The notes under the pieces: generated by a model
Seen by the model: only the letters and a program-made list of their open reading frames with translations
Told to the model about the DNA's origin: nothing
Database searches by the model: none
DNA from: an uncultured virus (IMG/VR IMGVR_UViG_3300021559_000006)
Taxonomy: Duplodnaviria; Heunggongvirae; Uroviricota; Caudoviricetes
Length of the DNA: 64,000 nt
IMG/VR virus record: IMGVR_UViG_3300021559_000006
Reading direction: 5' to 3' (one strand)
Shown here: positions 24,070-62,601 of the stretch, piece after piece
How positions within the stretch are numbered: the stretch's first letter is position 1
Layout: each line of letters starts with the position of its first letter
Position numbers and translations under genes: made by a program

Positions 24070-25365
24070 TCAGGCGGGGGCAAGGATGCAGCGGCAGCTT
24101 GGATGCTGGGGCAATGCCGGGGCGGCGAAGGGGCTGTACGGGCCTTGCCCTGCGATGTCGTCGCAGCGTTGGCATACGGCGCCGTCGCCAGCGGTGATCC
24201 ATTGGAGGGCTTGGATGCCGGCGCTGATGTAGGCGGCGATGAGGCCCGCCCCGTAGGCGGCGGAGACGGCGAGGTCGACGGTGAGGGTGACGTCCAGGCT
24301 GGCGGCGAGGACCGCGGCGATGGCCGCGAGTGGATCCTCGTGGGTGTCGGCCATGGCGCGTCCGGCGCGGCGTGCGACGGCGGCGAGGATGCGGCCGAGC
24401 CAGCTGGTCGCGGTGGCCTGGGCTGTGGCGTCGGGCATCTCGGATGCGCCGAGCGTGTAGCCGCTACCGGTGGTGTCGTCGTACTCGCTGTCGTCGGCGA
24501 GGTCGGCGGTGGTGAGGTGGTGTCCGGCCTGCCAGCCCGCCGCGTAGGCGCGCTGTATGGCCAGGGCCAGCGCCGCGCGCAGTCTCTTCCAGGCCTGGGA
24601 GGTGAGGACGGCGAGGATCATTGCGGCGGCTGCCTCGCGGCGCTGCTGTTGTTGCTGGTCGAGTTCGCCGACTGTGCGCCGCCATGCCGTGAGGGCGGGG
24701 CGGAGCGTCAGGCCGTCGGCGTCGGCGCGCCAGGCGGCGAGGACGATCGCGTCGGCGGTGGCGTGCAGGGCCATGCGGCGGGCGTAGACCGGGCGCCATA
24801 CGCCCTGCGGCGAAGAGAGCTGGATGGTGGCGCTCTCGACCGTGCCGTAGTTCCGGATCGCCGCACTCTCGAATGGGGAGAGCGGGAAGTTGGTCCGCTC
24901 GTTGCCGTAGACGGCCGACACGGCAGTGAAAGCCACCGGGACGGAGGGCAGCCGATCCAGGGGAGTGTCGGCGTCCGGAGCGAGGTATTGGATCGTCAGA
25001 TGCGGCGTGTATCCGTGATCACGCGGGATCTCGACGCCCTGTGCGGTGAGCAGGTCCATCGTGTCGCGGCGTAGGTCTTCGAGGCCGGGTGAGTCGACCA
25101 GGGCGACGACGACATCCTGCTCGCCGCCAGTGAATCGGGCGTGACCAGAGACACTGGCCTCGATCGGTCCCCGACCTGCCAGCGACTGCGCGACCTTGAG
25201 CAGGGTGCTGCGGTCGACTTCGGCCGTGCCGCCGAGGTAGGCCACGGTGACGTGCATCTCAGCCGGATCGAGCCCGTCGGCCACGGCCAGATCGTCAGCG
25301 AGTTGCCGTGGCGGATAGAGGGCGATCATGCAGCCATCGGAGTAGTCGGGGCTGGCCACTGCCAC
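24070..25365 (-). CDS. 2H phosphoesterase (2'-5' RNA ligase-like) fused to a Mu gpF-like minor head protein
   Basis: HVT and HLT 2H motifs; C-terminal WITAGDGAVCQRC...PQHPSCRC. Confidence 0.85.
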   Translation of the reverse strand: MAVASPDYSDGCMIALYPPRQLADDLAVADGLDPAEMHVTVAYLGGTAEVDRSTLLKVAQSLAGRGPIEASVSGHARFTGGEQDVVVALVDSPGLEDLRRDTMDLLTAQGVEIPRDHGYTPHLTIQYLAPDADTPLDRLPSVPVAFTAVSAVYGNERTNFPLSPFESAAIRNYGTVESATIQLSSPQGVWRPVYARRMALHATADAIVLAAWRADADGLTLRPALTAWRRTVGELDQQQQQRREAAAAMILAVLTSQAWKRLRAALALAIQRAYAAGWQAGHHLTTADLADDSEYDDTTGSGYTLGASEMPDATAQATATSWLGRILAAVARRAGRAMADTHEDPLAAIAAVLAASLDVTLTVDLAVSAAYGAGLIAAYISAGIQALQWITAGDGAVCQRCDDIAGQGPYSPFAAPALPQHPSCRCILAPA

Positions 25366-28377: not shown

Positions 28378-29927
28378 GGGTCACCTCCGATCAGCACGGG
28401 GAACCCGCCGAACATCTGCGGAGCAGGCGGCGGCACCCGACTCGCGCTGGTCGCGGTCGGATCCAACTCGGGGGCCACGGCGACCGGATCGGACGGGAAA
28501 TGGAACTTCGCCTCCCCACCGATCGACATCAGGAGGTACCGGCTGGCGTCATACCAGTGGTCGGGACCGTCGGTGTCGACGTCTTCGGGGCGGTGCGGGT
28601 CGCGGGGTAGTTCGCCCATGGTCTTGGTGAACTGCGGGCAGGAGCCGTCGAGGATGTGGAGCAGCGGGCAGGTCGCCCAGCCGAGTTCGCGGTGGTGAGC
28701 GCAGGCCGGGGCCTCGGCGAGGTAGCTGTGCATCCGGGACTTGCCGCCGAGACGGTCATTGTCCGCCTTCGTGAGATGTAGGCCCTCGGTGGCCATCTGA
28801 TCAGCTGGCGGCAGAGAGGACCCAGTCTTGCCCCACATGGCGGGGTCGGCGGCGATGGCCTGGACCTGGTGGCCGCTGTTCGCGTCGAGGATCTTCTTCG
28901 CCTGCTCGCGCTCCGGGGTCTGCACCATCGTCAGCTCGCGGTAGAACCACAAGCGCCCGTCGCCGTCCCGCGCCGCAGCAAGGTAGACGGAGGGCGCGGC
29001 CCAGCCGTAGTCCATGCCGCCGCGACGCTGCCACGTGGCAGGGATCTCGAACGGCGGCACGACGATCCGGTCGCGCTTCCAGTCGGGGAACGCGGCGTCG
29101 GGCATCGCGGACCAGTCTCCGTCCTTGATACGTGCGCGCAGGTCCGGGTCGGCGATGCCTTCGAGGGTCTTCTCGTAGTCGCCGACGTACGGGTTGTCGG
29201 ACGCCTTGGCGGGGATGAACAGGCGGCGCCGTCCGGCATTGTCGACGATCTCTTTGGTGCCGTAGTCGGTCGCGTCGACGTAGTCGGCTTTGACGACGCC
29301 GTGTCCGATGTGGCCGGGGTTGCTCGCGGAGCGAACGCCGAGGCAGGGGACACCGGCGACGCCTGAGCGGACGCGCGTGTAGAGGAAGTCGACGACGTCG
29401 GGGGGCATGGTGGTGCGCTCGTCGATGACCAGCATGTTGATCTCTGCGCTGCTCAGCGCGGCGGCTTCTTCCATGTTCTTCGCGTGGGCGAAGGTCAGGA
29501 TCGAGGCACCAGGGAAGCGGAGCTCGTACTTCGAGCCGTTCCACTGGCCGCCCACGGCCTTGGCGTAGTTGTAGCGCGCCAGGTTCCGCAGGACGGATTG
29601 GTTGAGCTGCGGGAACGTCTTGCGGAACCAGAAGATCTGAATGCCCGGGTAGCGGATGCAGGTGCGGATGACCAACGCGAGCAGCGACGCCGACTTGCCG
29701 CCGCCGCCGGCCCCGCCATAGAGGACGTCGAGGTCTTCATCGGGCAGGTTGAGGAACCGCTCCTGCGGGCATCCGCCGCACATTGGCGGCAGTTCAGCGT
29801 CGGAGGCTCCGGCGAGGCGGGCGAGGGCCCGCGGCTTGCATACCGGCTCGAAGCCCAGCATGGTGAGGGTGTCGGGCTTCTCGAAGTTCCGAGCCGCGTA
29901 TTCAGCCCAGTCGAGGATGGCGGTCAT
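28365..29927 (-). CDS. terL: Terminase large subunit
   Basis: Walker A GGAGGGGKS, Walker B LVIDE, ASNPG, nuclease GMDYG and DHWYDA. Confidence 0.95.
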   Translation of the reverse strand: MTAILDWAEYAARNFEKPDTLTMLGFEPVCKPRALARLAGASDAELPPMCGGCPQERFLNLPDEDLDVLYGGAGGGGKSASLLALVIRTCIRYPGIQIFWFRKTFPQLNQSVLRNLARYNYAKAVGGQWNGSKYELRFPGASILTFAHAKNMEEAAALSSAEINMLVIDERTTMPPDVVDFLYTRVRSGVAGVPCLGVRSASNPGHIGHGVVKADYVDATDYGTKEIVDNAGRRRLFIPAKASDNPYVGDYEKTLEGIADPDLRARIKDGDWSAMPDAAFPDWKRDRIVVPPFEIPATWQRRGGMDYGWAAPSVYLAAARDGDGRLWFYRELTMVQTPEREQAKKILDANSGHQVQAIAADPAMWGKTGSSLPPADQMATEGLHLTKADNDRLGGKSRMHSYLAEAPACAHHRELGWATCPLLHILDGSCPQFTKTMGELPRDPHRPEDVDTDGPDHWYDASRYLLMSIGGEAKFHFPSDPVAVAPELDPTATSASRVPPPAPQMFGGFPVLIGGDPWAL

Positions 29928-37587: not shown

Positions 37588-38211
37588 TCACTGCCAGGGT
37601 GCGGGGCCGGTCCCGGCGGTCCAGGCGGCGAGTTTTGCGGCGTCGTACATACGCAGGCCGACGCGCTGCCCGAACGCGGCAGCGTCGGGCGTGAACCGGC
37701 TGGTGGTGACGACCGCGGCCAAGTGCGCGCCGTGAATCTGCCGGTACGTGCCGTTGACGGCCTGCAGCGCCGGGGACCGGACGGGGTTGCCGTCGGCGTA
37801 GCGCTTGGCCTGGATCAGGATCCTGCGCCCGTCGGGCGTGGTGGCCAGCACGTCGGCGGCGAGGTCACCCGCGCCACCGACCACCTCGACCCGCGTGCAG
37901 CCGTCACGGCGGCACAGGGCAGCAATGTGCTCCTCGAACTGCCCGGGGCTCAGGCGCTGCATGCCAGCGATGGAACGCTGATGGATACGCCGCCCGTAGT
38001 GCCGGCGCGCTTTCGCCCAGCCGACTGCGGTAGCGACGAGCAGGAGCAGCAGGACGGCGAGGATCGTCACGCCCGGGTGCTGCTTGGCGTAGCTGACTGC
38101 GGTGAGCGCCAGGATCACGGCGAGGACACCAGACACGAGCCGGGCATCACGGTGCGCCTTCGAGCGGCGGCGCAGCACGCCGCGGCGCCGGTAGCGCGCG
38201 GGGGCGGTCAC
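37588..38211 (-). CDS. Membrane-anchored Mrr-like (PD-(D/E)xK) nuclease
   Basis: Two TM helices, then FEEHIA...GDLAAD...IQAKRY...VTTSRFT. Confidence 0.88.
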   Translation of the reverse strand: MTAPARYRRRGVLRRRSKAHRDARLVSGVLAVILALTAVSYAKQHPGVTILAVLLLLLVATAVGWAKARRHYGRRIHQRSIAGMQRLSPGQFEEHIAALCRRDGCTRVEVVGGAGDLAADVLATTPDGRRILIQAKRYADGNPVRSPALQAVNGTYRQIHGAHLAAVVTTSRFTPDAAAFGQRVGLRMYDAAKLAAWTAGTGPAPWQ

Positions 38212-38646: not shown

Positions 38647-40749
38647 TCAGTTCTCCTCGGGGCGCAGCGCGTACTGGCCGCGCGCGGGCTGATGGATCTG
38701 CGGTTCGGCCTTGAGCCAGTCCGTGATCGCGGAGCGGGACGGGGCCGGGGCTGCGGGGAACGTGATCCGGAAGAAGTCGAGGATCGCGGCCGGGTTGATG
38801 CCCCCGGGGCCGGACTTCGCGACGAGCGAGAACACGTACGGCCAGCGCACATCGTCGGTGACGCCCGACGTTGGTGTCGGCACGGTGGCCTCGGCCGGCT
38901 GCTCCGTGCTGGTGGGTTTGGTCCAGGTGACGCCACCGGCGTCGAGGATCTCCTGGAAGCGCCGGTCGAGATCGGCATCCCGACTGGTGGCTTCGTCGGC
39001 AGCATTGCGGAGGGCGTCGCGGGCGGCGTCGGCCTGATCGAGAGCAGCCTGCGTGTCGACGCGCGGCGCCGCCGTGCCCCAGTCCGCGGTGACACCCGAG
39101 CCGCGCGGACGCTCCGGGGTTGGGGCGGGCTCAGCGTCGACGGGGGCTTCGGGTGCCTCGCCGATACCGAAGAGGTGGTCCTTGCCGTTCCACCGGTTCT
39201 CGTAGTCGTCGCCTGCGGCCCGGCGGGACAGGTCGTCGAGTTCGGGCTGCCGGTCGGCGGTGGCGACGACGATGTCCCGGATCTGGTTGGGCTTGATCCG
39301 GTAGACCTTGAAGGGCCGCGCAGGCTCGTCGTCGATCTTGATGAAGCCGCATCCGGCATACGGCGCTTCCTCGGGTGAGACGCGGTCGCCCCAGCCGAAC
39401 AGGTACGCCATCTCGGCCTCGTCGGACTTCATGCCGATCTTGCAGGATGCCTGCTTCACCAACTGCGGCTCCGTCACCACATCCTGCGTGGCCCGCAGCG
39501 CCGCGTTCTCGACGTTGCACGCCACCGCGCGGGCGAGTTCCAGGATCTGCACGATGATGTCGCCGACCTCCCGCAGTACCGGATCCCTGCGGGCCTTCGG
39601 CGAGAACAGTTCCGCGATCTCGTCGTTGGTCAACGTGATCCCCGGAACCCCGGCGGACACCGGGAGCTTGTCGTCGTTGGCCTGGATCTCCAGCTGCTTG
39701 TAGCCGGGCTTGCGGGCCTTCGCGATCCGTAGCAGCGCCTTCGCCATCCGCAGTGCCTCGTCGGGGGTGTCGGCGACCCAGTCGATCGGCGGCCGTCCCG
39801 GGCGGCCGGCTGAATGCCAGGCGTGGAGCCAGGCGAGGGCGAGGCCACCGCCGTTGAGGTCGAGGACCCAGGTGAGGTTGTCGTCCATCCGCGCCTGGTT
39901 GGCGATCTTCACGTTCATCAGGTTCGTCTTGCCCGAGCCGCGGCGACCGGCGGTGAACCCGGAGCGCTGGCGCAGGTTCGGGCCGGCGATGCTGCCGTCG
40001 CGGTAGACGCCGTGCGGGGAGGGTCCGTCGAGGTGCAGGACGGTGTAGTCGGTGGGGTAGTCGGCGTCGGCGATCAGGGCGTTGACGGTGGCGACGTCGA
40101 TGAGGACCGCGCCGCGGTGGGCGCCGGCCTTGACCTCGACGCCGCAGCCCTCGGGGAGCCGGGCTTCGGCAGCGAGCGCGTCGCAGTGCGGCAGCAGGTC
40201 CCGCCACTTGGTACCTGCGAGGCATTCGGCGTCGAGGGTGTAGCCGCCGTCGGATGCCCACGGCTCGACGCCGACGATTTTGACGTTGGCGCTGGTGCAC
40301 ACGAGGGCGATGCGCTGGTCCCACTCGTCGGCGATCTTCTGGCGTTTGAAGTCCATCGTGGCGCGCTTCACTGCGGCCTCGACCTCAGCCTGGTGGGCGG
40401 CCTGCTTCTCCTCGACGCGGTGGGCCCCGACCAGGGCGGTGCCCATGCCGACCGCGCCAGCCAGCAGGGCCCCGAGGATCGACGGGTGCCACGGCGTGTC
40501 CGTGATCGCCCACGAGCACCACTCGCCCGCAGCCAGCCACGTCGCCGCGTGCAGGCCCAGAGTCAGACGCGGGAAGCCCTTGCGGATCCCGGCGATGGCA
40601 GTGCCGGCGAGGCCGAGGCCGGCGGTGGCGAGCGCCCAGCCCGGGTCGGCGTGGGCGACGCTGCCGATCCAGGCCAGCGACAGCGCCGTAGCGCCAGCGT
40701 TGATCGGTCCGGTGACGGGCCCGTGGCCGCCTTCCCAGTCGAGGTGCAT
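38647..40749 (-). CDS. traB: Streptomyces-type conjugative DNA translocase TraB (FtsK/SpoIIIE family)
   Basis: N-terminal TM helices, Walker A GRRGSGKT, Walker B TNDE, C-terminal winged-helix-like region; AAAGG RBS before ATG at 40749. Confidence 0.8.
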   Translation of the reverse strand: MHLDWEGGHGPVTGPINAGATALSLAWIGSVAHADPGWALATAGLGLAGTAIAGIRKGFPRLTLGLHAATWLAAGEWCSWAITDTPWHPSILGALLAGAVGMGTALVGAHRVEEKQAAHQAEVEAAVKRATMDFKRQKIADEWDQRIALVCTSANVKIVGVEPWASDGGYTLDAECLAGTKWRDLLPHCDALAAEARLPEGCGVEVKAGAHRGAVLIDVATVNALIADADYPTDYTVLHLDGPSPHGVYRDGSIAGPNLRQRSGFTAGRRGSGKTNLMNVKIANQARMDDNLTWVLDLNGGGLALAWLHAWHSAGRPGRPPIDWVADTPDEALRMAKALLRIAKARKPGYKQLEIQANDDKLPVSAGVPGITLTNDEIAELFSPKARRDPVLREVGDIIVQILELARAVACNVENAALRATQDVVTEPQLVKQASCKIGMKSDEAEMAYLFGWGDRVSPEEAPYAGCGFIKIDDEPARPFKVYRIKPNQIRDIVVATADRQPELDDLSRRAAGDDYENRWNGKDHLFGIGEAPEAPVDAEPAPTPERPRGSGVTADWGTAAPRVDTQAALDQADAARDALRNAADEATSRDADLDRRFQEILDAGGVTWTKPTSTEQPAEATVPTPTSGVTDDVRWPYVFSLVAKSGPGGINPAAILDFFRITFPAAPAPSRSAITDWLKAEPQIHQPARGQYALRPEEN

Positions 40750-40778
40750 CGTGGTGCCTTTCTCCCAGCGGGCTGGGG

Positions 40779-42128
40779 TTAGTTGGAGCGGACGTCCCAC
40801 ATGGCCTCGGACTCGCGGCCCTTGCGGGGCTGCTCGATGCGGGCGATGTCGACCTGGTGGAGTTTGCGGAACGCGGGCTGCAGGTCGCGGGCCATCTCGG
40901 CGGCTTTGAGCTGCATCTGGTGGATCTGCCGCATCAGTTCGACGATCTGCGGCGCCAGCGGGTACTTCGCGTCGGCGTTCTCGACGGTGACTTTCATGGC
41001 TTCGGCGTGCAACTCGAGGGCTTGCTGGAGTCCGGCGAAGTCTTGGCCGACCTGCATCATTCCGGTGGGCTGGTAGTTGGCGGCGGCTCGTGCGCCTTCC
41101 ATGGCGGGGGCGACGAAGTGGTGTCCGGACATGGCGGGGGCTCCTGCACGGGTCGGGGTTGAGGTGGCGGTGGGGCGGCGGACGCTGCTGGCGATGGTGG
41201 CGGCGGCCGGCTTCGGGGCTGCGGCGGTCTTGCGCTTGGCGCGGTGCTTCTTCCAGGCAGCCAGGGCCCGCTGACGGCCCTTCGCCCAGGACCAGTGCCG
41301 GATGGTGCCCCACACGCCGGACCGCAGCGCCTTGAGGGCGTCGGCGGAGGCGCCGCGCATCTTCCGTACGCTGCGGGCGGCCAAGGTGCGGGCCTGCTTG
41401 CGGCGGTCGGCGTGCTTCGCCCAGGTACGGGCAGCCTGCCGACGGGCCGCGGCTGCGCTACGGCGGGTGAGGCCGGACTGCGCACTGCCCTTGCGGTCCT
41501 TCTTCGACTTCCGCTTGCCCTTGGCCTTGTCCGTGGGCGACACCTTGCCGGTGCCACCGAGCATCCGATCCGCCAACCGGGCGAGGCGCGAGGTGCCGGT
41601 CTTGCCGGCGCCGGTCGCGCCGCCCCGGGTCGCCTTACTGTCCCTGACGGTCCCGGACGATCCCGGACGCGACTGCGACCCGCCGCCAGCGCCACGGCCG
41701 CCACCGACGGAACTGCCGCGCGGCGTAGAGCCCCCGCCGCCGGAGCGCCCCGCCGAGCCCGTCGACGGAAGCGTCCATCCGCCGCCCTTCGCCGAGCGGC
41801 TCGCCGCCGTCGACAGGTTCCGACGCTTCACCGTCGCCCGACGCTTCACCACCGACGCGCCACCGGCCGCCACCAGACCGGCACCCGTCGCGGCGAGGGC
41901 AGGCCAGCCGCCGGCGTAGAACGCACTCGTGACCGTCAGGGCCGCGGCGTTGCCCGTCGCAGCGAGGGCGGGGCCAGCGGGAACGCCTCGACGCCGAGGC
42001 GCACGCTCAGTGGCGGGCTTTGTCTCGGTGGGAGCAGCAGGCTGCGCCCATCCCGCTGTGACGTGCACGGGGACAGGCGGCAGGGTCTGGACGGGCGGGG
42101 GTGCGGGCGGTGCTTGGGTGTCCGCCAC
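40779..42128 (-). CDS. TraA-like plasmid transfer accessory protein
   Basis: TM segment, Gly/Arg/Lys-rich middle, helical C-terminal domain; directly upstream of traB; AAGGAG RBS. Confidence 0.65.
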   Translation of the reverse strand: MADTQAPPAPPPVQTLPPVPVHVTAGWAQPAAPTETKPATERAPRRRGVPAGPALAATGNAAALTVTSAFYAGGWPALAATGAGLVAAGGASVVKRRATVKRRNLSTAASRSAKGGGWTLPSTGSAGRSGGGGSTPRGSSVGGGRGAGGGSQSRPGSSGTVRDSKATRGGATGAGKTGTSRLARLADRMLGGTGKVSPTDKAKGKRKSKKDRKGSAQSGLTRRSAAAARRQAARTWAKHADRRKQARTLAARSVRKMRGASADALKALRSGVWGTIRHWSWAKGRQRALAAWKKHRAKRKTAAAPKPAAATIASSVRRPTATSTPTRAGAPAMSGHHFVAPAMEGARAAANYQPTGMMQVGQDFAGLQQALELHAEAMKVTVENADAKYPLAPQIVELMRQIHQMQLKAAEMARDLQPAFRKLHQVDIARIEQPRKGRESEAMWDVRSN

Positions 42129-42256: not shown

Positions 42257-43180
42257 TCACCGCCCCTCCTCACTCAAGGCGGGAACGTCCGCGCGGTCGA
42301 GGATCTCCGCCCGGATCGTCTTCGCCGTGGTGTCCGACACCGAGCCGTGCCCGGCTGCTTCGATCGCCTGGGCGAACTCGTTCGCGGTCGGCTGGCGGCG
42401 CAGGCGCTGGAACTCGGCGTGGAAGATCGGCCCGGCGAGGGGCACCCACTCGTCGAGGGAGCGACGGGGCGCCTTCTTCCTGACGCCGGAACGGGCAGGC
42501 TTCTGACGGCGGGCCGTCGACGGCTTGACGGTGTTTCCGTCGACGGCGGCAGCGTCGGGAAGGCCGACGGAAGTATCGACGGAAGGGGCCGATCCGTCGA
42601 CGGCTGGCGCCGCAGCTGTCGCGACGGAACGCGTCGTCTCGTCGACGGTTCGCGGCGCTGCCGACGCGACGGAAAGCGTCGAACCGACGCTGCTCCCGAC
42701 GACGGGAACGGGCCGATCCGTCGCCGACGGAACAGGCGAGTCGTCGACGGTTGCCTTCGACAGGGCGCCCTGCATCTGACGCATCAGCGCCCCGAAGGCG
42801 AGCAGTGCGGCGACGGGCGGGACGGCGGCGACGACGTAGGTCATGGCCGCGGCGTTGCCGCCGACGCCGGCGACGTTGAGGGCGATGGAGCCGAGGGATC
42901 CGGTGGCGGCGAGGAAGATCGCGGTCCGGTCGGTGAGGTAGCGCAGGGCTGCGCGGAGGATGAGGATTTCGCCGATGACGATGAACGTGTCGACGGTGGC
43001 GGGCCAGGCCCAGGCGCGGGATCCGCTGAGTCCGTAGCGCTGGGCGACGTCGTGGAGGTGTTCGTAGGAGAGCCAGAACGCGATGCCGGTGAGGATGACG
43101 GTGGCGATGACCGCGGCGATGGCGAGGCGGCGCAGGGTGTCCGGGGACGCGGCGGGCGCGTGCTTGTCGGGCGCGGTCAC
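42257..43180 (-). CDS. DUF2637 / SpdA-like membrane protein
   Basis: AFWLSYEHL...AWAWPATVD...SIALN...AAVPP, four TM helices, C-terminal HTH-like segment. Confidence 0.8.
   Translation of the reverse strand: MTAPDKHAPAASPDTLRRLAIAAVIATVILTGIAFWLSYEHLHDVAQRYGLSGSRAWAWPATVDTFIVIGEILILRAALRYLTDRTAIFLAATGSLGSIALNVAGVGGNAAAMTYVVAAVPPVAALLAFGALMRQMQGALSKATVDDSPVPSATDRPVPVVGSSVGSTLSVASAAPRTVDETTRSVATAAAPAVDGSAPSVDTSVGLPDAAAVDGNTVKPSTARRQKPARSGVRKKAPRRSLDEWVPLAGPIFHAEFQRLRRQPTANEFAQAIEAAGHGSVSDTTAKTIRAEILDRADVPALSEEGR
42514..42752. repeat. Cluster of 8-mer direct repeats CGACGGAA (clt-like)
   Basis: Exact copies at 42565, 42577, 42622, 42667 and 42725, plus CGACGG variants. Confidence 0.65.
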
Positions 43181-46770: not shown

Positions 46771-47370
46771 CTAGTCGGCGGGAGGCTCGAGGTCGTCGAC
46801 CGGCTGGGAGAGACTCTTACGGACAGCATCGCCGAGGGCGACCTCATCAACGTCATCCGTGCCAGCCGCCTTGAGATACCCGGCGATTGTGCGCCCCGTC
46901 GCCCTGATGCCGACTGTCGCGCGATAGGCACGTCGACCAGCTGGGCGGGACCAGGTCTGGAAGTCGTTCCACACTTCGCCGTCGTCGTCGGCGGGCAGGT
47001 CGTCCTCGAGCGGGCGTTCGCCGAGGAGCCAGTTCCAGGCGATGTCTGCGCCGATCTCGCCGGCCGATGTGATGGGGGTCGAGTCGTGCTGGTCTGCGGT
47101 CGGCGGCAGCAGGAGCGCGGTCGGACTGACGCGTAGGGCGAGGGCGATGACGATGAGGTCGTCGACGTCGACCTTGCGTTGGCCGAGCTCGAGCTTGGTG
47201 ATGCTCGAGGCGGTGATGGGTCGGCCGGCGTCCTCGAGGAGCTTGGCGAGCTGGATTGTGGTGAGTCCTCGAGCGTTGCGGAGGCGCGCGACGTTGCGGG
47301 CCACGGTCATGCCGCTGGGGCCGACGCCGTTGACCTGCCGCGATTCTCTGCGCGCTCCATGTGCTTCCAC
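46771..47370 (-). CDS. XRE-family HTH immunity repressor
   Basis: NVARLRNARGLTTIQLA...SITKLELGQRKVDVDDL. Confidence 0.88.
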   Translation of the reverse strand: MEAHGARRESRQVNGVGPSGMTVARNVARLRNARGLTTIQLAKLLEDAGRPITASSITKLELGQRKVDVDDLIVIALALRVSPTALLLPPTADQHDSTPITSAGEIGADIAWNWLLGERPLEDDLPADDDGEVWNDFQTWSRPAGRRAYRATVGIRATGRTIAGYLKAAGTDDVDEVALGDAVRKSLSQPVDDLEPPAD

Positions 47371-47738: not shown

Positions 47739-49724
47739 GTGACCTGGAACGACAACCCCGAAGACGAACCGTCACCCCGGTTCGAGGTCCCACGCGACCG
47801 CCAGGCAGAACACATGGTCCTGGCGGGCGTCATGGCCAGCCCCGCCGCCTACCCGGAAGCCGCCTCGCTGCTCCAGCGCGCCGACTTCCCGTTCGACCCC
47901 GAGCGGGCGATCTGGGACGCCATCACCGACCAGGCCCGCGCCGGAGACCCGCTCGAGCCGGCCGCGATCCTCAAGCGCCTCGAGACTACGAAGGCGCGCG
48001 TCGACCGGGACTTCTTCCTCAAGCTGGCCACCGCGCCGGTGACCGGCGGGACCGTCGGCTACTACGCCGAAGAGATGCTCGTCGCCAGCGAGCTGCGCCC
48101 CTTCGCGGACCTGCTCGGCCAACTCGGCGTTGCACTGACGGAGAAGGCCGTGCGAGCCAGCACGCTGCGCCGACTTGTGAACGAGAAGCTCGAGGAGTCC
48201 CGGCTCGTCTCCGTTCCCGGTACCGCGCGGCTGCCCAGTGGTGGCCGCTGGCCGGACCCGCTTCCGCTCGAGAACCCGCCGCCGCCCGCGCTCGACGCCG
48301 GGCTGCTCGGCGGCATCGGGGAGATGGCGCAGGCCGTGTCCACGTCGCTTCAGGTCCCGGTCGACCTGCCCGCATTCCTGGGCTTGGCGGTTGCCTCTGC
48401 CGCGATCGGCGGCCGACGACTGGTCAGTCCGAAGCCGGACTGGATCGAGGTCGTGACTCTGTACACCATGCCTGTCGCCGCGCCGGGCGAGATGAAGTCG
48501 CCTGCCCTGTCGCTGATGGCTGGTCCGCTGTACCGGGCGCAGTCCTCGAGGCGCAAGGAGGCCGAGGAGTCGATCAGCAAGGACGCTACCGAGCGGCACC
48601 TTGCCGAGGCGCGCATCAAAGGCGCGGAGGCGAGGTTCGTCAAGGCGTTCGACCAGAAGGGCATGGAGACGGCCAAGGCGCAGATGAAGATGGCGCAGGA
48701 CGAGCTTGCGATGCTCGGCGAGGCTCCGGTGATGCCTCAGATGCTCGCGGACGACACCACACCGGAGGCCCTGGCGGACATCATGCTCGAGCAGGACGAC
48801 CGCATGGCGATCCTCTCAACCGAGGGCAGCTTCCTCGGCAACATCGCCGGGCGGTACTCGTCGGGGACGGCGAACCCGGAGATCGCGCTCAAGAGCTGGA
48901 ACCAGGAACCGCACCCGATCAACCGCAAGGGACGCTCGGTCATCCTCGAGCACCCGAACCTGACGCTCGGCCTCGCTGCGCAGCCGGGTCTGCTCACCGG
49001 CCTCGGGAAGTCGGCGGCGGTGTTCGAGGAGCGCGGCTTGATGGGACGGTTCCTGTTCGCGATGCCTGCCTCGAGGGTCGGCCTGCGTGACTACGACTCC
49101 GAGAAGATCAGCGACACGGTCAAGGACGCCTACGAGTCGAGCATCAAGACGATGGTCGCCCGGATCTGGGCCGACAAGCAGCGGCGCACGCTCGAGTTGG
49201 ACCCCAAGGCGGCGGACTCGTTCCGCTCGTTCTGGCTCGAGCTCGAGCCGCGTCACGCTGAGACCGGTGACCTTGCGTCGGTGGAGGGCTGGGCGAAGAA
49301 GCTTCCGGGGCAGGTGCTGCGGATCGCGTCGGTCCTCGAGCTGTTCGCCGAGCCGGCGTCGATGACGGTGGGCGGGGCGGCGATGGATGACGCGATCGCC
49401 TTGGTGCCGTATCTGGTGGCGCACGCGCGGCTGGTGGCGGACTTGATGACGGGTCAGCGGCGCTCGAGCCTGGGGCCTGCTCGAGACATCCTCGAGTGGC
49501 TGCGGTCGACGCGGACTGAGGTGTTCGCGGTCGCGGAGGTGCAGCGGGCGCTCCATGGTCGGTCGTGGTGCTCGGATGCCTCGAGCGTCGAGTCGGCGGT
49601 GGCTGTGCTCGAAGAGCGCTACTGGGTGTCGGCGGTGCCTGCGCCTGAGCGTGCTACTGGGTCGCGTGGTCGTCCGCCGAAGCCTCGGTTCGCGGTGCAT
49701 CCGTCGGTGTGGGCGGGGGAGTGA
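47739..49724 (+). CDS. Replication protein: DnaB N-terminal-like domain fused to a DUF3987/YfjI-like helicase domain
   Basis: VPRDRQAEHMVLAG (DnaB-N); WPDPLPL; APGEMKSP; DDTTPEAL; GLMGRFL. Confidence 0.82.
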   Translation: MTWNDNPEDEPSPRFEVPRDRQAEHMVLAGVMASPAAYPEAASLLQRADFPFDPERAIWDAITDQARAGDPLEPAAILKRLETTKARVDRDFFLKLATAPVTGGTVGYYAEEMLVASELRPFADLLGQLGVALTEKAVRASTLRRLVNEKLEESRLVSVPGTARLPSGGRWPDPLPLENPPPPALDAGLLGGIGEMAQAVSTSLQVPVDLPAFLGLAVASAAIGGRRLVSPKPDWIEVVTLYTMPVAAPGEMKSPALSLMAGPLYRAQSSRRKEAEESISKDATERHLAEARIKGAEARFVKAFDQKGMETAKAQMKMAQDELAMLGEAPVMPQMLADDTTPEALADIMLEQDDRMAILSTEGSFLGNIAGRYSSGTANPEIALKSWNQEPHPINRKGRSVILEHPNLTLGLAAQPGLLTGLGKSAAVFEERGLMGRFLFAMPASRVGLRDYDSEKISDTVKDAYESSIKTMVARIWADKQRRTLELDPKAADSFRSFWLELEPRHAETGDLASVEGWAKKLPGQVLRIASVLELFAEPASMTVGGAAMDDAIALVPYLVAHARLVADLMTGQRRSSLGPARDILEWLRSTRTEVFAVAEVQRALHGRSWCSDASSVESAVAVLEERYWVSAVPAPERATGSRGRPPKPRFAVHPSVWAGE

Positions 49725-56552: not shown

Positions 56553-57200
56553 ATGCGCAAGATCCCCACCGTCTTCAAGCGCGACCCCGACGACCGGGCG
56601 CACGTCCTGCCCGTGGTCAACCCCGACTGCCAGTGGGTCCTCAACGGGGAAGGCACTGCGACCAGGAAGTACGACGGCACATGCGTCCGCCTCGACGAGG
56701 ACGGCCAGTGGTGGGCCCGGCGCGAGGTGAGGCCAGGCAAGGCCATGCCCGCGAACTACATGCCGGTGACGACCGATCCGGTCACCCACAAGGTCATGGG
56801 CTGGGAGCCGATCGAGCAGTCCGCGTTCGCGAAGTTCCACGCCGAGGCCGTGAACTGGGGCGACCACCCGCCCGCGCCGCTCAGGCCGGGCACGTATGAG
56901 CTCGTCGGCCCGAAGATCAACGGCAACCCGGAGCGGCGCGATGAGCACTGGGTCCTGTCGCACCGCAACGCCCCGATCATCAAGGCTCCGGATCGGTCCT
57001 TCGGGGCGATCCGGGCGCTCGTCCTGCGCCTCCACGAAGAGGCCGGCTGCGAGGGCATCGTCTTCCATCACCCCGACGGGCGCATGGCGAAGATCAAGGC
57101 GAGGGACTTCGAGGTGATGCCGTACACCGTCACCTGCACCTGTGACTGCCCCGAGTGCGCGGGCGGGCACGGCTGTTGCGACGGAGAGGCCAGCCGGTGA
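56553..57200 (+). CDS. Minimal RNA-ligase-like nucleotidyltransferase (DUF5565-like)
   Basis: Motif I KYDGT, motif III YELVG, motif IV EGIVF, motif V KIK. Confidence 0.78.
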   Translation: MRKIPTVFKRDPDDRAHVLPVVNPDCQWVLNGEGTATRKYDGTCVRLDEDGQWWARREVRPGKAMPANYMPVTTDPVTHKVMGWEPIEQSAFAKFHAEAVNWGDHPPAPLRPGTYELVGPKINGNPERRDEHWVLSHRNAPIIKAPDRSFGAIRALVLRLHEEAGCEGIVFHHPDGRMAKIKARDFEVMPYTVTCTCDCPECAGGHGCCDGEASR

Positions 57201-57841
57201 CGCGCCTGAGCTGCCTCATCAACGCCGACACGGCCGCCGTGCTCCTGCGTCAACCGGCAGGCGTCACCATCACCGAGACGGTGCGCCGGGCCATCACCCT
57301 GTACGACCTGCTCGACCGTGCCACGGCGGACGGGAGCCGGATCGAGTTGGTGCACGGCTGCCAGGTACGGGAACTCGTGCTGCACGGCGGGGAGGGGCAG
57401 TGATCCTCGCCTGGAGCTACCTGCTGGCCCGCTTCCGCCTCCGCTCCCACGGCACCCGTGCGCAGCGCCAGACGGCCCGCCAGCGGGACGACGCGACGCT
57501 TGTGGCGCTATGGATGGCCGCCAACCCGCAGGGGCCGCTACAGGCGGCCGGGTTCGAGATTCCGCTGAGCGGGCGCAGGCTACGGCAGGCGTTGGCGCGG
57601 CTCGCAGATGAGGCGACGGAGGCAGGCCGGTGAGGCGTTGTGTGTCCTGTCGCCGCCGGATCTGGCCGTGGCAGTCCTGGTCCGGCTGGGGGCCAGCCGG
57701 ATTCCAGGCCCGCAATGCCGACCTCGCCCAGCACACCGCGTGCATGCGCCGCCAAGCCCTCGAACGCCACCAAGGCGAGCACCAGCGCACCGGGCTCTGC
57801 AGCCTGCTCGACTGCCCGAACGACACCGCCCAGGAGGCATC

Positions 57842-58234
57842 GTGACCGACCTCGCCCGGGAGCTGCTGCGGTTCGCTCCCCGATGCACCTTCCGACTCCG
57901 TGTCCCCGTCGACGGCGGCCTGTTCCGCTACGACGACCTCTGGCCCACAAGCGGCCGGCTCAACGACGGCGAGTGGCCGTTCCTCAACCCGCCCGACATC
58001 GGGGACACGGTTGGTCTGTGGAAGCCCGACTGGCGAGTCGAGCCGAAGCCGCCGCACCCGCACGGCGTCTACCGGGTCATCGAACGGGACTGGTCCTACG
58101 CCAGCTACGGCTCCGGGGCGTGGCCGTATGGCGAGCCTGCTCCGAAGGTCGGACCGATGCTCACGCTCATCGTCGAACCGGCCGAGGGCCCGTACCGCAA
58201 CGAGGCGCCAGCCGACGAGGAGGAGACGTCGTGA
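57842..58234 (+). CDS. Hypothetical protein
   Basis: AGGAGG RBS, GTGA overlap. Confidence 0.55.
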   Translation: MTDLARELLRFAPRCTFRLRVPVDGGLFRYDDLWPTSGRLNDGEWPFLNPPDIGDTVGLWKPDWRVEPKPPHPHGVYRVIERDWSYASYGSGAWPYGEPAPKVGPMLTLIVEPAEGPYRNEAPADEEETS

Positions 58235-58716
58235 CCGACGGCCTGAACGAGTGGCGGCAGGCGGCGTACACGGCCACCCACGAACGAGACGAGGCCCGCG
58301 CTGACCTGGAGAAGTGGGACGACCTCCGCGCCGAGACTCACGAGCGGATGCGTACGGACCTCACCGAGCTGATCCAGTCGAAGTGGGATGCCGAACTCTG
58401 CGACCCCGACGCGGCGATGGCCGCCGACACGGTCCTTGACTACCTGGAGAACGACTTCGCCGGCCAGCTCGCCCGCATGCAGCAGCGCACCGAAAAGGCA
58501 GAGCAGCAGGTGCAGCGTGTCCGGGAGTTCGCAGCCAGCGACGCCCTCCAGCCGTGGGTGCGTGAGCGATTGGCCGCCGCCCTCGACCCGCCACCACCGA
58601 CATGCCCGCGCTGCCACGGGCACGGCAAGATCCCGGACTGGTCGCAGGGCCTTGATCCGGTCTACGGCGAACCCCAAGCCAAGGCATGCCCCGACTGCCA
58701 GGAGACTCCCGCATGA
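58231..58716 (+). CDS. Coiled-coil protein with C-terminal zinc finger
   Basis: CPRCHGHG...CPDC; GAGGAG RBS. Confidence 0.6.
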   Translation: MTDGLNEWRQAAYTATHERDEARADLEKWDDLRAETHERMRTDLTELIQSKWDAELCDPDAAMAADTVLDYLENDFAGQLARMQQRTEKAEQQVQRVREFAASDALQPWVRERLAAALDPPPPTCPRCHGHGKIPDWSQGLDPVYGEPQAKACPDCQETPA

Positions 58717-59033
58717 CCGATCCTCAGCTGCCCGCCGAGCATGCCGGGCACGCGATCAGCTGGGAGCCGTGGCAGACGCGGGCCGTGTGCGGGCGCGACC
58801 TGGTGCCGCAGGACTGCAGCATCTGCGGCCAGAAGACGCCCCACGAGCGCACCCTGGGCCGCGTGGACGGCTCCACGACTGTCCGGGCCAGCGCGCTGCG
58901 GTGCATGCTCTGTGGCGGCGTCCGAGCGCTCTGGCGCGAAGACCCGGCGCCGGGTGCGGCGAGGGGGAAGCTGGTGCCGCTGTGCACCGGCGCGCACGTA
59001 GAAGCATTCACCACCGAGGAGACACCCGCATGA
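58713..59033 (+). CDS. Zinc-ribbon hypothetical protein
   Basis: CSIC and CMLC; ATGA overlap. Confidence 0.5.
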   Translation: MTDPQLPAEHAGHAISWEPWQTRAVCGRDLVPQDCSICGQKTPHERTLGRVDGSTTVRASALRCMLCGGVRALWREDPAPGAARGKLVPLCTGAHVEAFTTEETPA

Positions 59034-59551
59034 CCGACGACCAGCCCGACTCCTTCGCTGCTGCTCACGCTGAGCGCGGCTACACCATCGGCGCGTACTT
59101 TCCGCCGTCGGTGCCGTGGGAGGTCGTTGACGCCGCGTTCGATCTGCTTGGGGATCACATCCACGCCTACACCGACGCGCCGTGGGATGTCAGCGTGATC
59201 GGCGGTGCCGGGGATCAACTCGGCGTCAGCGGTGAGCCGTTGCCGCCGTTCCCATACCACTTGGCGCGCTGCATGGGCTGCGATGAGTTGACGGACGACT
59301 GCACCTGCACATCCACCGAGGCGGAGATCGATGCGGCGATGGCCGCCGGTGAACCGGTCGAGATCACCGACGCCCCGGACCTGACCCGCGCCGAGTTGCA
59401 GGACCTCGCCGACGAGTTGACAGGGTCGCTGCGGCGGCGATGGAGGCGTTCAAGCCCGGCGCCGGGCCCGTGTTCTGTCACCACCCGAACGCCCAGCGGA
59501 GCGTCCGCGCAGTGCGATCGGGTTGGGGATGGAGGACGTTGGTCACGCTGA
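59030..59551 (+). CDS. Hypothetical protein (GYTIG motif); 3' end uncertain
   Basis: GAGGAG RBS, ATGA overlap. Confidence 0.5.
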   Translation: MTDDQPDSFAAAHAERGYTIGAYFPPSVPWEVVDAAFDLLGDHIHAYTDAPWDVSVIGGAGDQLGVSGEPLPPFPYHLARCMGCDELTDDCTCTSTEAEIDAAMAAGEPVEITDAPDLTRAELQDLADELTGSLRRRWRRSSPAPGPCSVTTRTPSGASAQCDRVGDGGRWSR

Positions 59552-60080
59552 CGTGCCCCGCCTGTCCGGCCTGGGCGGAGCAGGTGGACGGCGAGCCGGT
59601 TCTCGCGCCGTGGCTGCTCAATGTGGAGCGGTGTACCGAGGCGTGCGCCGAGCGGCACACGTATCGGCAGGGCTGCGGGATGCGGCCCAGCGCCCCGTTG
59701 CGTACCCCCCCAACGGCCGCAGATGAGCCGCGGTGGATCGAGGGCAACCCGGTGCCGATGCCGGCGGTGGATGCTGCAGGGCAGGCGTGGTGGAAGGGCA
59801 AGCCGTGGCCACCACGGAACGATACGGCCCCGGTGCTCCACGACCATCAGGTGTGCGAGCGGTGCGATGTGACCGACCCGTGCGGTTGCTGCGGGATTCG
59901 GTTCACTGACGGCCGGTGGGTCAACGCCGACGGCACGCCGGCCACTGTCGCCAGCGTGGCAACAGGCGGCGAGTCCGTGCCGTGGGGCGGTGACGCGCAG
60001 GACTGCAACCAGTGCACAGCAGACGGGCGGACGGGGTTGCGCCTCTGTCCTGGCCATCCGGCACCAGGCGAGGCGCAGCG

Positions 60081-60515
60081 GTGAGCGCCCGTCTGCGGCG
60101 TCCTGGCGGGCGTTGGCGGCTCCTGGTCCATCACTGGGCCGGGCGCGAGCCAGGCAGGCGCGAAGGTGGCTACGACGTGTCCCATCACGTCAGCCCTGAT
60201 CCGGCGTTCGGCGGACAGCACCCCGACAGCGCGCACTCACGGACGCACCTGATCGAGGGCACTGAGTTCGACGAGCTGGTCGTCGGGAGCTTCCTGCACG
60301 TGGAGCAGATAGGCATCGGGTTGTGGTGGATCAACGTCGGCGGAGTCGTCGTGCATGTGGAGGCTGATCGCGACGGCCGCCCGCGAGACGTGTGGGTGTG
60401 TGGACCGAAGGACTATGACGAGCCGCGTGAGGGGTGTACGTATCGATTGAACTGGGGCAAGCACGTCGAGGAACCCGGACAGGCGGGCTCCGGTTCTGTC
60501 ACGATGCCGTCATGA
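60081..60515 (+). CDS. Hypothetical protein
   Basis: GTGA overlap; FDELVVGSFLHVEQ...WWINVGG. Confidence 0.6.
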   Translation: MSARLRRPGGRWRLLVHHWAGREPGRREGGYDVSHHVSPDPAFGGQHPDSAHSRTHLIEGTEFDELVVGSFLHVEQIGIGLWWINVGGVVVHVEADRDGRPRDVWVCGPKDYDEPREGCTYRLNWGKHVEEPGQAGSGSVTMPS

Positions 60516-60679
60516 GTCCTGTCGCCGCCCCTGTGGCCGCCCCCACGCCCATCCGTCGCCGTGTGCCGCTCACCGTGCTGGCGAAGTCCCACGCGCTGCC
60601 CGGTGCTGTCCGTGAGCGGGTCCTGCCGGGTGAGAAGAAGGCTCAGGTTGAGGTGGCGGCGTTCCAGTCGTCCGTGTAG
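60512..60679 (+). CDS. FxSxx-COOH (FxsA-like) RiPP-precursor-like peptide, 55 aa
   Basis: RVPL..LA...RVL...VAAFQSSV-stop; ATGA coupling to the upstream gene. Confidence 0.72.
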   Translation: MSPVAAPVAAPTPIRRRVPLTVLAKSHALPGAVRERVLPGEKKAQVEVAAFQSSV

Positions 60680-60681
60680 CC

Positions 60682-60924
60682 GTGCCTGCCCAGCTTCCGC
60701 TGCTCCCTGAGCCCTCGGCCGGGGAGCAGCCGCTTGTGCGCTGCCGGGAATGCCGGCGGCCACTGCACGACCCGGAGTCGAGGCGGCGCGGGACCGGACC
60801 GGAGTGCCAGGTTGAAGCCTTCGCCGCACGCCGGTTCCAGGTCGACCAAGAGCCGCTGCCGGGCATGGAACAGCCCCGCCGGTTGCAGCCGGACGGGGCC
60901 AGGGTGGTGCGGGGCTCGGACTAA
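60682..60924 (+). CDS. DUF6011-like zinc-finger protein
   Basis: RCRECRRPLHDPESRRRGTGPEC. Confidence 0.7.
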   Translation: MPAQLPLLPEPSAGEQPLVRCRECRRPLHDPESRRRGTGPECQVEAFAARRFQVDQEPLPGMEQPRRLQPDGARVVRGSD

Positions 60925-61539
60925 CGAGCAGCTGTGCGTGGCACGAGAGCAGGGCCAGTCTGTCAGACCCTCGCCCTACCGTCGTGGACAGCGCAACCCG
61001 GGCCGTCACGGCGACGACCGCAGCATGGCGCAACGATGATGGCCAGTCCCGACACACGGGGACTGGCCATCGATCACTTCCGCCTCCTGCGGTTGCGCTG
61101 CCTGATCCGGTGCCGGCCGTCCAGCGCGGACGGGGCGCCGAGCCCGAAACGGGCCTGCCGGATCCGGTGCCGGCGCAGGACCTGGCGTTCGCCCCGGTTG
61201 GGTCCGGACCAGTACCAGCGGGTCATGGCGGCGCGGACTTGCTGTTCTTCGGTGTCGGTCAGGTCTGCGCCGATGACCGCCCACGACGCGAGGCCGAGGA
61301 GCTGCACCGCCGCGACACGGGACGCAAGCACGGTCACGAGGTCGCCGCCGGGTCGACGCAACTCGAGGCGAGTGCGGCCTGCAACTCGTCGCGCATCCGG
61401 GCGCACTCCCGTGGCTGCATCGGCCGCGCCCACCACGAGTCCAGCAGCGCCTGCACCCACTGGACGGTGGCCCGGTCACGCTGCGCCTGCCCCTCAGCCT
61501 CAGACGCAGCAAGCCGGGCATCCGGGTCGCGCTGATCGG

Positions 61540-61989
61540 TCATCGCACACCCCCCGCTACAACGGCCGCGGCCACCGCGAGCCACCCCTTGTGCCACGCC
61601 TGATCCAGCAGGTACGGCGAGCCAGGATCACGCTCCAACCAGCCCGCATGCCCGGTGACAGCAGCCAGCCGGGCGACTCCGCGCGGATGCGGCTCACGCC
61701 AGTGACCAGCCTGCCGATCCGCCGCATAGTGCGTGACCGCCGACACCGCGAGACCCAGGGCAGCGCGCCGCCAGTCGAGGCGCAGCCCCAGCAGCCGGTC
61801 AGCGGCCAGCAGAGCCAGGCCCTGCGTGGCCGTGTACGTGGCGACGTGCGATGCGCACGCCTGGGCACCGGCAGGACCAGGCAAGCCCTTCGCGGTCGCC
61901 TGGGCGTCGATCTGCACCCAGTGGTCGGCGACCTCGTGCGAGGCCGTGAGAACCGCGTAGGCGGCGGCGAAACGAGCGGCGTGGTTCAC
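61540..61989 (-). CDS. DUF3307-like membrane protein
   Basis: HEVADHWVQ...HVATY...THYAADR...DQAWH. Confidence 0.75.
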   Translation of the reverse strand: MNHAARFAAAYAVLTASHEVADHWVQIDAQATAKGLPGPAGAQACASHVATYTATQGLALLAADRLLGLRLDWRRAALGLAVSAVTHYAADRQAGHWREPHPRGVARLAAVTGHAGWLERDPGSPYLLDQAWHKGWLAVAAAVVAGGVR

Positions 61990-62256
61990 GGGAGGTCCTT
62001 GATGGTCTGGCCGCACTCCACGCAGCGCTCAGCCAGCAGGTGGAACGCCTCGACCGAGTCCGGGTGCTGCATCTCGTCCAGCAGGTGGTCCTGCTCGGGG
62101 ATGCCGGAGTGCGGCAGGGTAGCGACGGCGGGGGTGTGGGCTTGGGTGTACTGCTCGACGGTCATGGCTTTCTCCGGGGCTTGTCGGCGTGGTGCAGGAG
62201 TAGGGCGGCCAGAGTGAGAGCCGCGAGGGCAACGGTGAAGAGCAGGGCTGGGTTCA

Positions 62257-62601
62257 CTAGGCACCGTCCTTAACGATGCGCACGACGTTGGCGAGCGGCT
62301 TCTCGGTCATCCATGCGCGGGACGCCTCCCGCCAGGCGAGCAGCTCCTGCACCGGGTCGCGCCACCGCAGGTTGGGCCGGTCCTGGATGAACGGTGCGGT
62401 GAGGATCTGCACGGGGTCGATCTCGGCGGCCACGAACGCAGCGAAGCGCTGGGTGGTGGCCCAGTCGTCGAACCCCCACGCCCATTCGGGTTCAGCGCCG
62501 CGCAGTGCGACAGCGAACCGCGGTGCGGGTGCGGGTTCGGGCTGGCCTGTTTCGCGGCGGCCGTGCGCGGCCATATCGGCGGACAGGCTGCGGTCGGTCA
62601 T
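62257..62601 (-). CDS. Hypothetical protein
   Basis: GAGGAG RBS, ATGA overlap. Confidence 0.55.
   Translation of the reverse strand: MTDRSLSADMAAHGRRETGQPEPAPAPRFAVALRGAEPEWAWGFDDWATTQRFAAFVAAEIDPVQILTAPFIQDRPNLRWRDPVQELLAWREASRAWMTEKPLANVVRIVKDGA

Follow-up and report, generated by a model that had tools for sequence, protein, structure and literature searches.

Why would a phage carry a gene for a peptide precursor of the FxsA (FxSxx-COOH) type and none for the enzyme that matures it? The question is raised by a short gene at positions 60512–60679 (+ strand) of a 64,000-nucleotide (nt) stretch of an uncultured virus (IMG/VR record IMGVR_UViG_3300021559_000006); the whole of this stretch is called the window below. 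The product is almost certainly a true FxsA homologue, as the profile comparisons indicate, and copies of the same kind recur in phages. That the host enzyme FxsB would mature the phage peptide, and that the product would act on the host proteins FxsC and FxsT, most likely as a counter-defence, is a combined statement that we hold to be as open to doubt as to belief.

The peptide gene and its family

The features of the gene are as follows.

60512–60679, + strand: FxsA-like (FxSxx-COOH type) precursor gene, 55 amino acids (aa) and stop, from open reading frame (ORF) and frame analysis, profiles and a 30-member clade
60512–60515, + strand: ATGA start/stop overlap of the peptide ATG with the upstream TGA (60513–60515), read directly from the sequence
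60560–60571, + strand: leader motif R-V-P-L (aa 17–20), with R17 invariant and L20 in at least 90% of the clade (alignments)
60617–60628, + strand: second leader motif R-V-L-P (aa 36–39), with R36 and L38 in at least 90% of the clade
60647–60676, + strand: core V-E-V-A-A-F-Q-S-S-V with a free C-terminus, with F51 (60662–60664), S53 and S54 invariant

The gene starts with the ATG at 60512 and ends with a TAG stop at 60677–60679, and both the sequence and the ORF list give a 55-aa product with the C-terminal end VEVAAFQSSV. The original prediction, made from the sequence alone, had described a VAAFQSSV end and leader-like RVPL, LA and RVL elements, and these are all present, within the motifs RRRVPL (aa 15–20), LAK and RERVLP (aa 34–39). 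In the alignment with in-cluster peptides, R-V-P-L falls on the canonical FxsA leader R-x-[SP]-L; for the second leader motif the canonical consensus is LxR[AV]LPG, and the F-x-S-S-[IVL] ending is also present in FxsB-adjacent peptides. The G+C content of the three codon positions over 60560–60679 (GC1 0.78, GC2 0.45, GC3 0.82) marks the peptide frame as coding, of the high-GC type, in a window of 68.8% G+C; both flanking ORFs on the + strand likewise show coding frames. The ATG at 60512 is favoured as start over an upstream GTG at 60434, since the N-terminal MSPVAAP recurs in the relatives P0018, P0025 and L063. The ATGA junction is the arrangement of a gene that is presumably translationally coupled to its upstream neighbour, as the original prediction had it, and the downstream gene begins with a GTG at 60682, 2 nt past the peptide stop. 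A contig of 2,242 nt from an RNA library covers 59019–61260 with zero differences, for which DNA carry-over is possible.

The curated models weigh against the family assignment. With NCBIfam model TIGR04268 the peptide scores 18.4 bits (expectation value (E) 0.0019), under the cutoff of 28 bits, and with SjiA (NF040585) it scores 18 bits, under the equivalog cutoff of 75; both matches are anchored at the C-terminus of the peptide, and neither PADLOC nor PHROGs assigns it a family. Such scores would suit a chance resemblance, that is, an unrelated small ORF ending in F-x-S-x-x by coincidence. The curated cutoff appears too strict for this clade, because a bona fide, FxsB-adjacent FxsA (L002) also falls under the cutoffs, with only 24.6 bits for TIGR04268 and 30.3 bits for SjiA. 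An independent hidden Markov model (HMM) was made from 21 distinct canonical FxsB-adjacent peptides of other Streptomycetaceae, with phage and close-clade sequences excluded, and was scored against all stop-to-stop ORFs of 30 aa or more in the six frames of the whole window, 1,035 in number. The peptide ORF ranks first among them, with 31.8 bits (E 5.6e-9), against 7.8 bits (E 0.17) for the runner-up, and its alignment covers both leader motifs and the core. The family search that had been proposed as a check therefore has a divided outcome: the NCBIfam match stays under its cutoff, whereas the match to the in-cluster model is significant and bears out the assignment to the FxSxx-COOH type.

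Relatives of the peptide point the same way. Among 1.84 billion representatives, searched exhaustively with HMMER, there is one (P0002, E 6.5e-6), which carries the Joint Genome Institute (JGI) name 'FXSXX-COOH protein', and a scan of viral contigs returns a 54-aa ORF with the end VEVAAFQSSI in a 175-kb virus. The peptides P0002, P0003 and that of L002 match SjiA and TIGR04268 at E 3e-8 to 5e-4; the close relatives match SjiA over their full length (E 3e-8) and reach 20–24 bits with TIGR04268. A profile search extends the set to a clade of 30 members, in all of which R17, V48, F51, S53 and S54 are invariant and the end is F-x-S-S-[IVL]. The peptide has the family's length (55 aa, in a range of about 40–70 aa), its last five residues (F-Q-S-S-V, for F-x-S-x-x) with a free carboxyl group, and similarity in leader and core to FxsB-adjacent peptides. 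An HMM match and a conserved terminal FxSxx are both found. The independent HMM, the full-length alignment to SjiA and the existence of relatives that directly adjoin FxsB rule out a chance resemblance, which retains next to no probability.

Orphan copies and complete fxs loci

In the window, a genuine FxsB has a best tblastn E of 0.83, and none of FxsB, FxsC, FxsT and the AAC(3)-like protein gives a tblastn match at E ≤ 1e-4. Pfam finds no radical SAM domain in the window's ORF sets of 56, 4 and 10. CxxxCxxC motifs in long ORFs (near 57135 on the + strand and 44270 on the − strand) were considered and rejected, Pfam giving no radical SAM there. Neither an FxsB beside the peptide nor a TIR-like FxsC and a tetratricopeptide-repeat (TPR) FxsT nearby, as in a canonical fxs locus, is present in the window. 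For the part of the phage outside it, a prophage on the 403-kb contig C3 of genome G089, collinear with the window, serves as a proxy: none of the FxsB-like matches of G089 lies on this contig, and the FxsB matches of G089, G022 and G052 are all off the prophage contigs. Six viral records with an FxsA-type peptide (CheckV completeness 34–100%) contain no FxsB, among them the 175-kb virus, which is 100% complete. From these comparisons the peptide gene is very probably an orphan. The original prediction had placed it, without a radical SAM gene in the window, in a phage early region, and its setting is indeed of the replication or early type, without FxsB, FxsC or FxsT and on the same strand as the DnaB block; the 403-kb prophage contig and the complete relative do not hold the cognate maturase that would have turned it into an ordinary cluster.

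The same arrangement is found elsewhere. Four cellular genomes contain five FxsA copies that have no Fxs gene within some 10 kb, and three of the five belong to prophages that are relatives of the window phage. The G089:C3 prophage and the window are collinear across some 30 genes; the terminase is 87% and the capsid 62–80% identical, and the portal and tape-measure genes are spaced as expected. The G089:C3 orphan (287797–287961) stands directly before the orthologue (287967–288194, 72%) of the DUF6011 gene that follows the peptide gene in the window, and after an orthologue (74%) of the window gene at 58686–59033. The prophages on G022:C124 and G052:C5 are mosaic relatives, with eight and seven genes in common with the window, respectively, and their orphans are among DnaB, DUF6221, methylase or helix-turn-helix (HTH) genes. 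By alignment with canonical FxsA, the scan of viral contigs adds five more IMG/VR records, with ends VAAFNSSI or VAAFQSSI, all among phage replication, lysis or terminase genes; at completeness 34–96%, no FxsB is present in the whole of these records. The survey of phages that had been suggested has thus yielded six IMG/VR viral records and three prophages, and shows that phage-borne orphan FxsA is recurrent.

Some neighbours of the orphans may be recorded here. A gene for a Thg1-like tRNA-His guanylyltransferase is found a few kb from the orphan in one prophage and two viral contigs (L047, 13093–13875; L063, 16726–17517; L064, 6906–7868), and an RNase H or exonuclease gene directly adjoins the peptide gene in L067, L066 and L001. 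The copy L046 (2574–2771 of G089:C57) is beside isocitrate dehydrogenase and GT87 genes, and L058 (9991 to about 10140 of G201:C1) is between DUF2079 and Ku, with the end NSST instead of NSSI.

Clade profile matches occur in 152 of the 401 Streptomycetaceae genomes searched. The closest cellular relative, from a Streptacidiphilus record, is followed after 40 bp by an 832-aa FxsB (594–597 bits, cutoff 370), in the order FxsA, FxsB, AAC(3)-like gene, FxsC, FxsT. FxsB is within 1.5 kb in 27 of the 30 best cellular loci. The other three have the order peptide, FxsC, FxsT; two of them have FxsB about 7.5 kb further along their 20-kb locus, and in the third (L039) the single FxsB of G022 is about 16 kb on, in a tandem array. 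This array (L039/L040; G022:C113, about 43–79 kb) contains three peptide–FxsC–FxsT sets, with the one FxsB common to all, and the cores of the sets differ, ending in FQSSI, FTSCI and FGSSV. The sequences suggest that each peptide may belong with its own sensor pair and that the maturase is shared; the array looks like a diversification of peptides and sensor pairs around one maturase.

As the original prediction had stated, the loci include TIR-like and NTPase/TPR proteins: FxsC carries a TIR domain, and FxsT consists of a ParA-like AAA domain (aa 24–230), a TIR domain (353–468), an NB-ARC/STAND domain (510–702), DUF7779 and about 480 aa of TPRs. For the host system PADLOC gives no more than a candidate-system match, PDC-M28B, to the ParA part of FxsT. 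Kaur et al. 2020 (PMC7159879) describe FxSxx peptide-processing modules with TIR and AP-ATPase-TPR proteins as conflict systems and predict the peptide as 'a peptide toxin or signal'. A preprint of October 2026 (10.64898/2026.10.19.760177) places FxsC/FxsT among 'TIR-ParA apoptosis systems' and suggests, for the FxsAB peptide, the role of an antiviral molecule or diffusible alert. Both sources predict FxsC/FxsT to be a TIR-ParA cell-suicide (abortive-infection) immune system, and two further papers (PMC10114670, PMC10288494) describe FxsB and SjiB as cyclophane-forming.

Role of the phage copy

The reading that we prefer is a counter-defence by a mimic of the system's own ligand. The phage would carry a stand-alone fxsA copy, expressed along with its replication or early genes. 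Host FxsB would recognise the phage peptide through the conserved leader and cross-link the F-x-S core, by a linkage that we take to run from Phe to the Ser C-beta and that would lower the mass by 2 Da, and the phage would thereby yield the host's own peptide or a near copy of it. The peptide would act on the predicted FxsC/FxsT suicide module, holding the module silent or jamming its signal while the phage replicates.

The two steps differ in strength. In RiPPs (ribosomally synthesised and post-translationally modified peptides) the leader serves enzyme recognition. Because the leader and the F-x-S-S core are both constrained in copies without an enzyme of their own, the phage peptide is on balance a probable substrate of host FxsB. 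That the product would then act on FxsC/FxsT to the advantage of the phage is plausible, with our judgement leaning slightly to the side of doubt. In the window, L041 and L044 the peptide gene is on the strand of the replication genes, in the DnaB/DUF6221 block, and in the window it is coupled; such a position, within that block and co-oriented with it, speaks for a role in lytic growth. For a phage that makes the peptide alongside the products of its replication genes, the greatest gain would come from a suicide module that is kept off or whose signal is swamped. A complex prediction, made without controls, for the TPR domain of G022 FxsT (482 aa) with the peptide of the G022 prophage (57 aa) speaks for neither side: the scores are 0.02 and 0.00, where the mark is 0.32, and the true ligand may not be the unmodified peptide that was modelled.

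The G022 prophage offers the closest match of a phage copy to its host. Over the last 45 residues its orphan shares 89% identity with the FxsA that adjoins FxsB in the host, the next best peptide reaching 58%, and the last 14 residues are the same in both. The DNA of the pair is 81% identical over 129 nt and the flanks have no similarity; dS, the synonymous divergence, is 0.75, and the ratio of non-synonymous to synonymous divergence (dN/dS) is 0.17. These values argue that the G022 orphan was not captured recently and that selection has kept it similar to the host's FxsA. The best in-cluster match of the window peptide is the FxsA of G089 (53%), the genome with the collinear prophage. The resemblance of orphans to the FxsA of their own hosts, together with the conserved leader and core, lends indirect support to the original prediction that the phage would borrow the host maturase or make a decoy or mimic.

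Other roles would also involve a host-type peptide. Since the carriers are temperate or integrated (by the window's repressor gene and the prophages in G022, G052 and G089) and their copies resemble the host's own peptide, a lysogenic conversion might be envisaged, in which the phage adds a copy of FxsA that strengthens or primes the Fxs system against other phages and protects lysogen and prophage; the antiviral molecule or diffusible alert predicted in the literature would suit such a role. The gene is, however, within the replication block and on its strand in the window, L041 and L044, is coupled to the preceding gene in the window where a moron would be separately oriented, and is among replication genes in the complete 175-kb virus too, and we consider lysogenic conversion unlikely. 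In a competitive decoy, the leader would occupy FxsB or the leader-processing step and give no working product, starving the host of matured FxsA. All phage copies keep the leader motifs, and early expression of a coupled gene could supply an excess of peptide; but the F-x-S-S end and free C-terminus are intact in all 30 clade members, in the five further viral copies and in the three prophage copies, and in G022 the identity with the host's peptide extends through the core. A dead-end decoy would be free to lose its core, and as the core is never lost, a pure decoy is improbable.

A role in communication would have the diffusible peptide, matured by the host enzyme, report the density of infection in the manner of arbitrium and steer the decision between lysis and lysogeny. 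Temperate carriers and a small, processed product that is predicted to be diffusible would accord with it, but no phage-encoded TPR protein or other candidate receptor is found near the gene in the window, the copies follow the host peptide and show no divergence by phage lineage, and the gene neighbours vary among phages, which leaves this role quite improbable. Finally, the gene could be a passenger without function, a piece of some host's fxs locus that was acquired by illegitimate recombination and is now drifting, as the presence of orphans in chromosomes (L046, L058) and several pairwise dN/dS near 1 would allow. Drift is hard to reconcile with an ORF that is intact, with its leader and core invariants, in six viral records, three prophages and the 30-member clade; with a syntenic position kept between the window and G089, where the two orphan peptides are 53% identical over the last ~45 residues; or with the low dN/dS of the G022 pair at its dS of 0.75 and with no flanking host DNA. 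We give the passenger very little probability.

Several points weigh against the counter-defence reading itself. Two of the five cellular orphans, L046 and L058, are in ordinary chromosomal contexts, and orphan copies are therefore not phage-specific and may be extra substrates. The host FxsA ranks first (with one tie) for all five cellular orphans among 38 in-cluster peptides from 33 genomes, but the margins outside G022 are small, 53–62% against 47–58%, and the matching is confounded by host range and phylogeny, either of which alone could produce it. The search for fxsB loci in hosts finds one or two FxsB above cutoff in all four orphan-bearing genomes, a figure that is biased, three of the four having been found through in-cluster matches. 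The dN/dS of the other pairs, 0.34–1.09 from codon alignments of 38–41 codons with near-saturated dS, is uninformative. About 25 kb of the longest, 88.8-kb contig with the peptide is outside the window. No obvious Shine–Dalgarno-like sequence precedes the ATG on inspection, and a promoter and terminator scan of 57000–62500 gives 0 sites, with a sigma-70 consensus that is ill-suited to actinomycetes; for this reason the missing promoter also speaks only weakly against lysogenic conversion. The effect of the peptide could have either sign: if it were an alarm or activator, it would harm a lytic phage, and an effect of that sign would suit lysogenic conversion. The Fxs system itself is called functionally uncharacterised in the preprint (10.64898/2026.10.19.760177).

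A more far-reaching form of the counter-defence reading can be stated. FxsA would be the cognate ligand that keeps the FxsT/FxsC TIR-ParA suicide system off; temperate actinophages would have captured fxsA repeatedly, host FxsB would mature the phage copy and the system would stay silent during replication, and hosts would respond with multiplied and divergent peptide–FxsC–FxsT sets, as in G022. We offer this version tentatively and regard it, taken whole, as rather doubtful.

The carrier phage and comparison with known systems

The gene content of the window is that of a temperate, siphovirus-like actinomycete phage. The − strand holds a structural module, with genes for tape measure (11784–14663), tube (16202–17371), capsid (20136–21497) and portal (25747–28377), a terminase-like gene (28365–29927) and lysis genes. 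The rightward block begins with the DnaB-N/DUF3987 helicase gene and continues through DUF6221, ASCH and RNA-ligase genes up to the peptide gene. The genes that frame the peptide gene are listed below.

46771–47370, − strand: HTH repressor-like gene; the rightward replication/early operon with the peptide gene diverges from it (Pfam HTH_3 and HTH_31; PHROG transcriptional repressor families)
47739–49724, + strand: DnaB-N/DUF3987 helicase gene, which shares its strand and gene block with the peptide gene (Pfam; PHROG DNA helicase)
58686–59033, + strand: conserved early gene, Cys-rich (tblastn: G089:C3 286587–286907, 74%; G001 91680–91880, 34%)
60081–60515, + strand: upstream gene coupled to the peptide gene, with no assigned function; start GTG 60081 or 60177 (GC frame, candidate starts)
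60682–60924, + strand: DUF6011 zinc-ribbon gene, 2 nt downstream of the peptide gene (PF19474, E 7.4e-11)

The gene at 58686–59033 is conserved upstream of the orphan peptide in three phages, in L001 directly so. The coupled gene at 60081–60515 has no match in Pfam or PHROG and no relative among the viral contigs or related prophages. The identical peptide is recorded on four contigs, and soil metagenome runs contain the stretch; a metagenome scan adds L008 alone, a 4,070-bp piece of this phage, which ends about 580 bp past the peptide gene, within the span of the window. The collection of cultured phages holds no near relative: DNA matches are limited to 430 bp at 72% (Streptomyces phage ZL12) and 45 nt in the RNA ligase gene, and a tblastn search with the peptide gives only chance matches (E ≥ 2) in enterobacterial tail fibres.

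Some other genes of the window deserve mention. The portal protein (876 aa) has a LAGLIDADG_3 match at aa 563–606, and its orthologue in the G089 prophage aligns as aa 1–345 and 695–876 on contiguous DNA, so the window portal appears to contain an insertion of about 350 aa that resembles an intein or homing endonuclease. A 431-aa protein of the structural module (24070–25365, − strand) carries a 2H phosphoesterase domain at its N-terminus (2_5_RNA_ligase2, E 5.7e-12), scores 20.7 bits with the anti-CBASS Acb1 model (cutoff 27) and has head-morphogenesis or protease-like PHROG matches in its C-terminal part; perhaps it is an enzyme of cyclic nucleotides or RNA ends that is associated with the virion. 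Between 37588 and 43180 (− strand), genes for an Mrr-type nuclease (37588–38211), an FtsK/SpoIIIE-like protein (38647–41313) and a DUF2637 protein (42257–43180, 'excisionase' PHROG) are of a type usual in actinomycete conjugative elements, here within a phage; the FtsK-like gene has a homologue in the G052 prophage and the DUF2637 gene one in the G022 prophage. The membrane-protein gene at 61540–62016 (− strand), of PHROG category 'moron', is 72% identical in DNA to Streptomyces phage ZL12, and its product is 60% identical to a protein of the 175-kb virus G001. Within the RNA ligase gene (56553–57200, + strand), a stretch of 45 nt is 95.6% identical to the RNA ligase genes of two Mycobacterium phages.

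The interest of the locus lies in the system to which it points. Fxs, predicted to be immune-related, is widespread in filamentous actinomycetes, as the count of Streptomycetaceae genomes given above illustrates, and a phage gene that copies only the peptide part is a natural 'pointer', of the type that exposed the logic of other defence systems. What the window contributes is threefold: it ties the orphan to integrated relatives whose hosts are sequenced, it shows that synteny is conserved, and it shows that prophage copies match their hosts. Two experimental pairs follow from it, the G022 prophage orphan with the host FxsA that it resembles so closely, and the window-collinear prophage in a host with two FxsB; they make it testable whether FxsB accepts the phage substrate, whether FxsC/FxsT is turned on or off, and whether Fxs is anti-phage or not. 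If the dependence is real, this would be an unusual case of a virus that depends on a host RiPP maturase. If the peptide does silence the system as its ligand, this would be the first case of counter-defence in which the victim's own enzyme matures a ribosomal natural-product precursor for the phage, and the Fxs system would have a function assigned to it. In the literature searched, with the supplements of two comparative-genomics papers outside its scope, no description of a phage-encoded FxsA was found.

Among known systems, the FxsA/FxsB cyclophane system (TIGR04268, TIGR04269, SjiA NF040585) is the closest. The phage peptide is like it in size (about 55 aa), in the R-x-[PS]-L...LA and R-[VA]-L-P elements of its leader and in the free F-x-S-S-[IVL] end; it differs in its place within a phage replication block, in its scores under the curated cutoffs and in having no FxsB, FxsC or FxsT in the window or the related prophage contigs. 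Some phages supply antitoxin mimics that neutralise abortive-infection toxin–antitoxin systems. The proposed logic would be the same, in that the phage supplies a copy of the small regulatory component of a host system during infection; phage FxsA differs in being a RiPP precursor that still needs a host enzyme, and its inhibitory role is a putative one. With the TIR-ParA systems (PMC7159879; 10.64898/2026.10.19.760177) the relation is one of part to whole: the host loci of the relatives have the same make-up of FxsC and FxsT as the cellular loci that these papers describe, whereas the phage has the peptide only. By homology, then, the phage gene is a phage-borne variant of a known peptide family.

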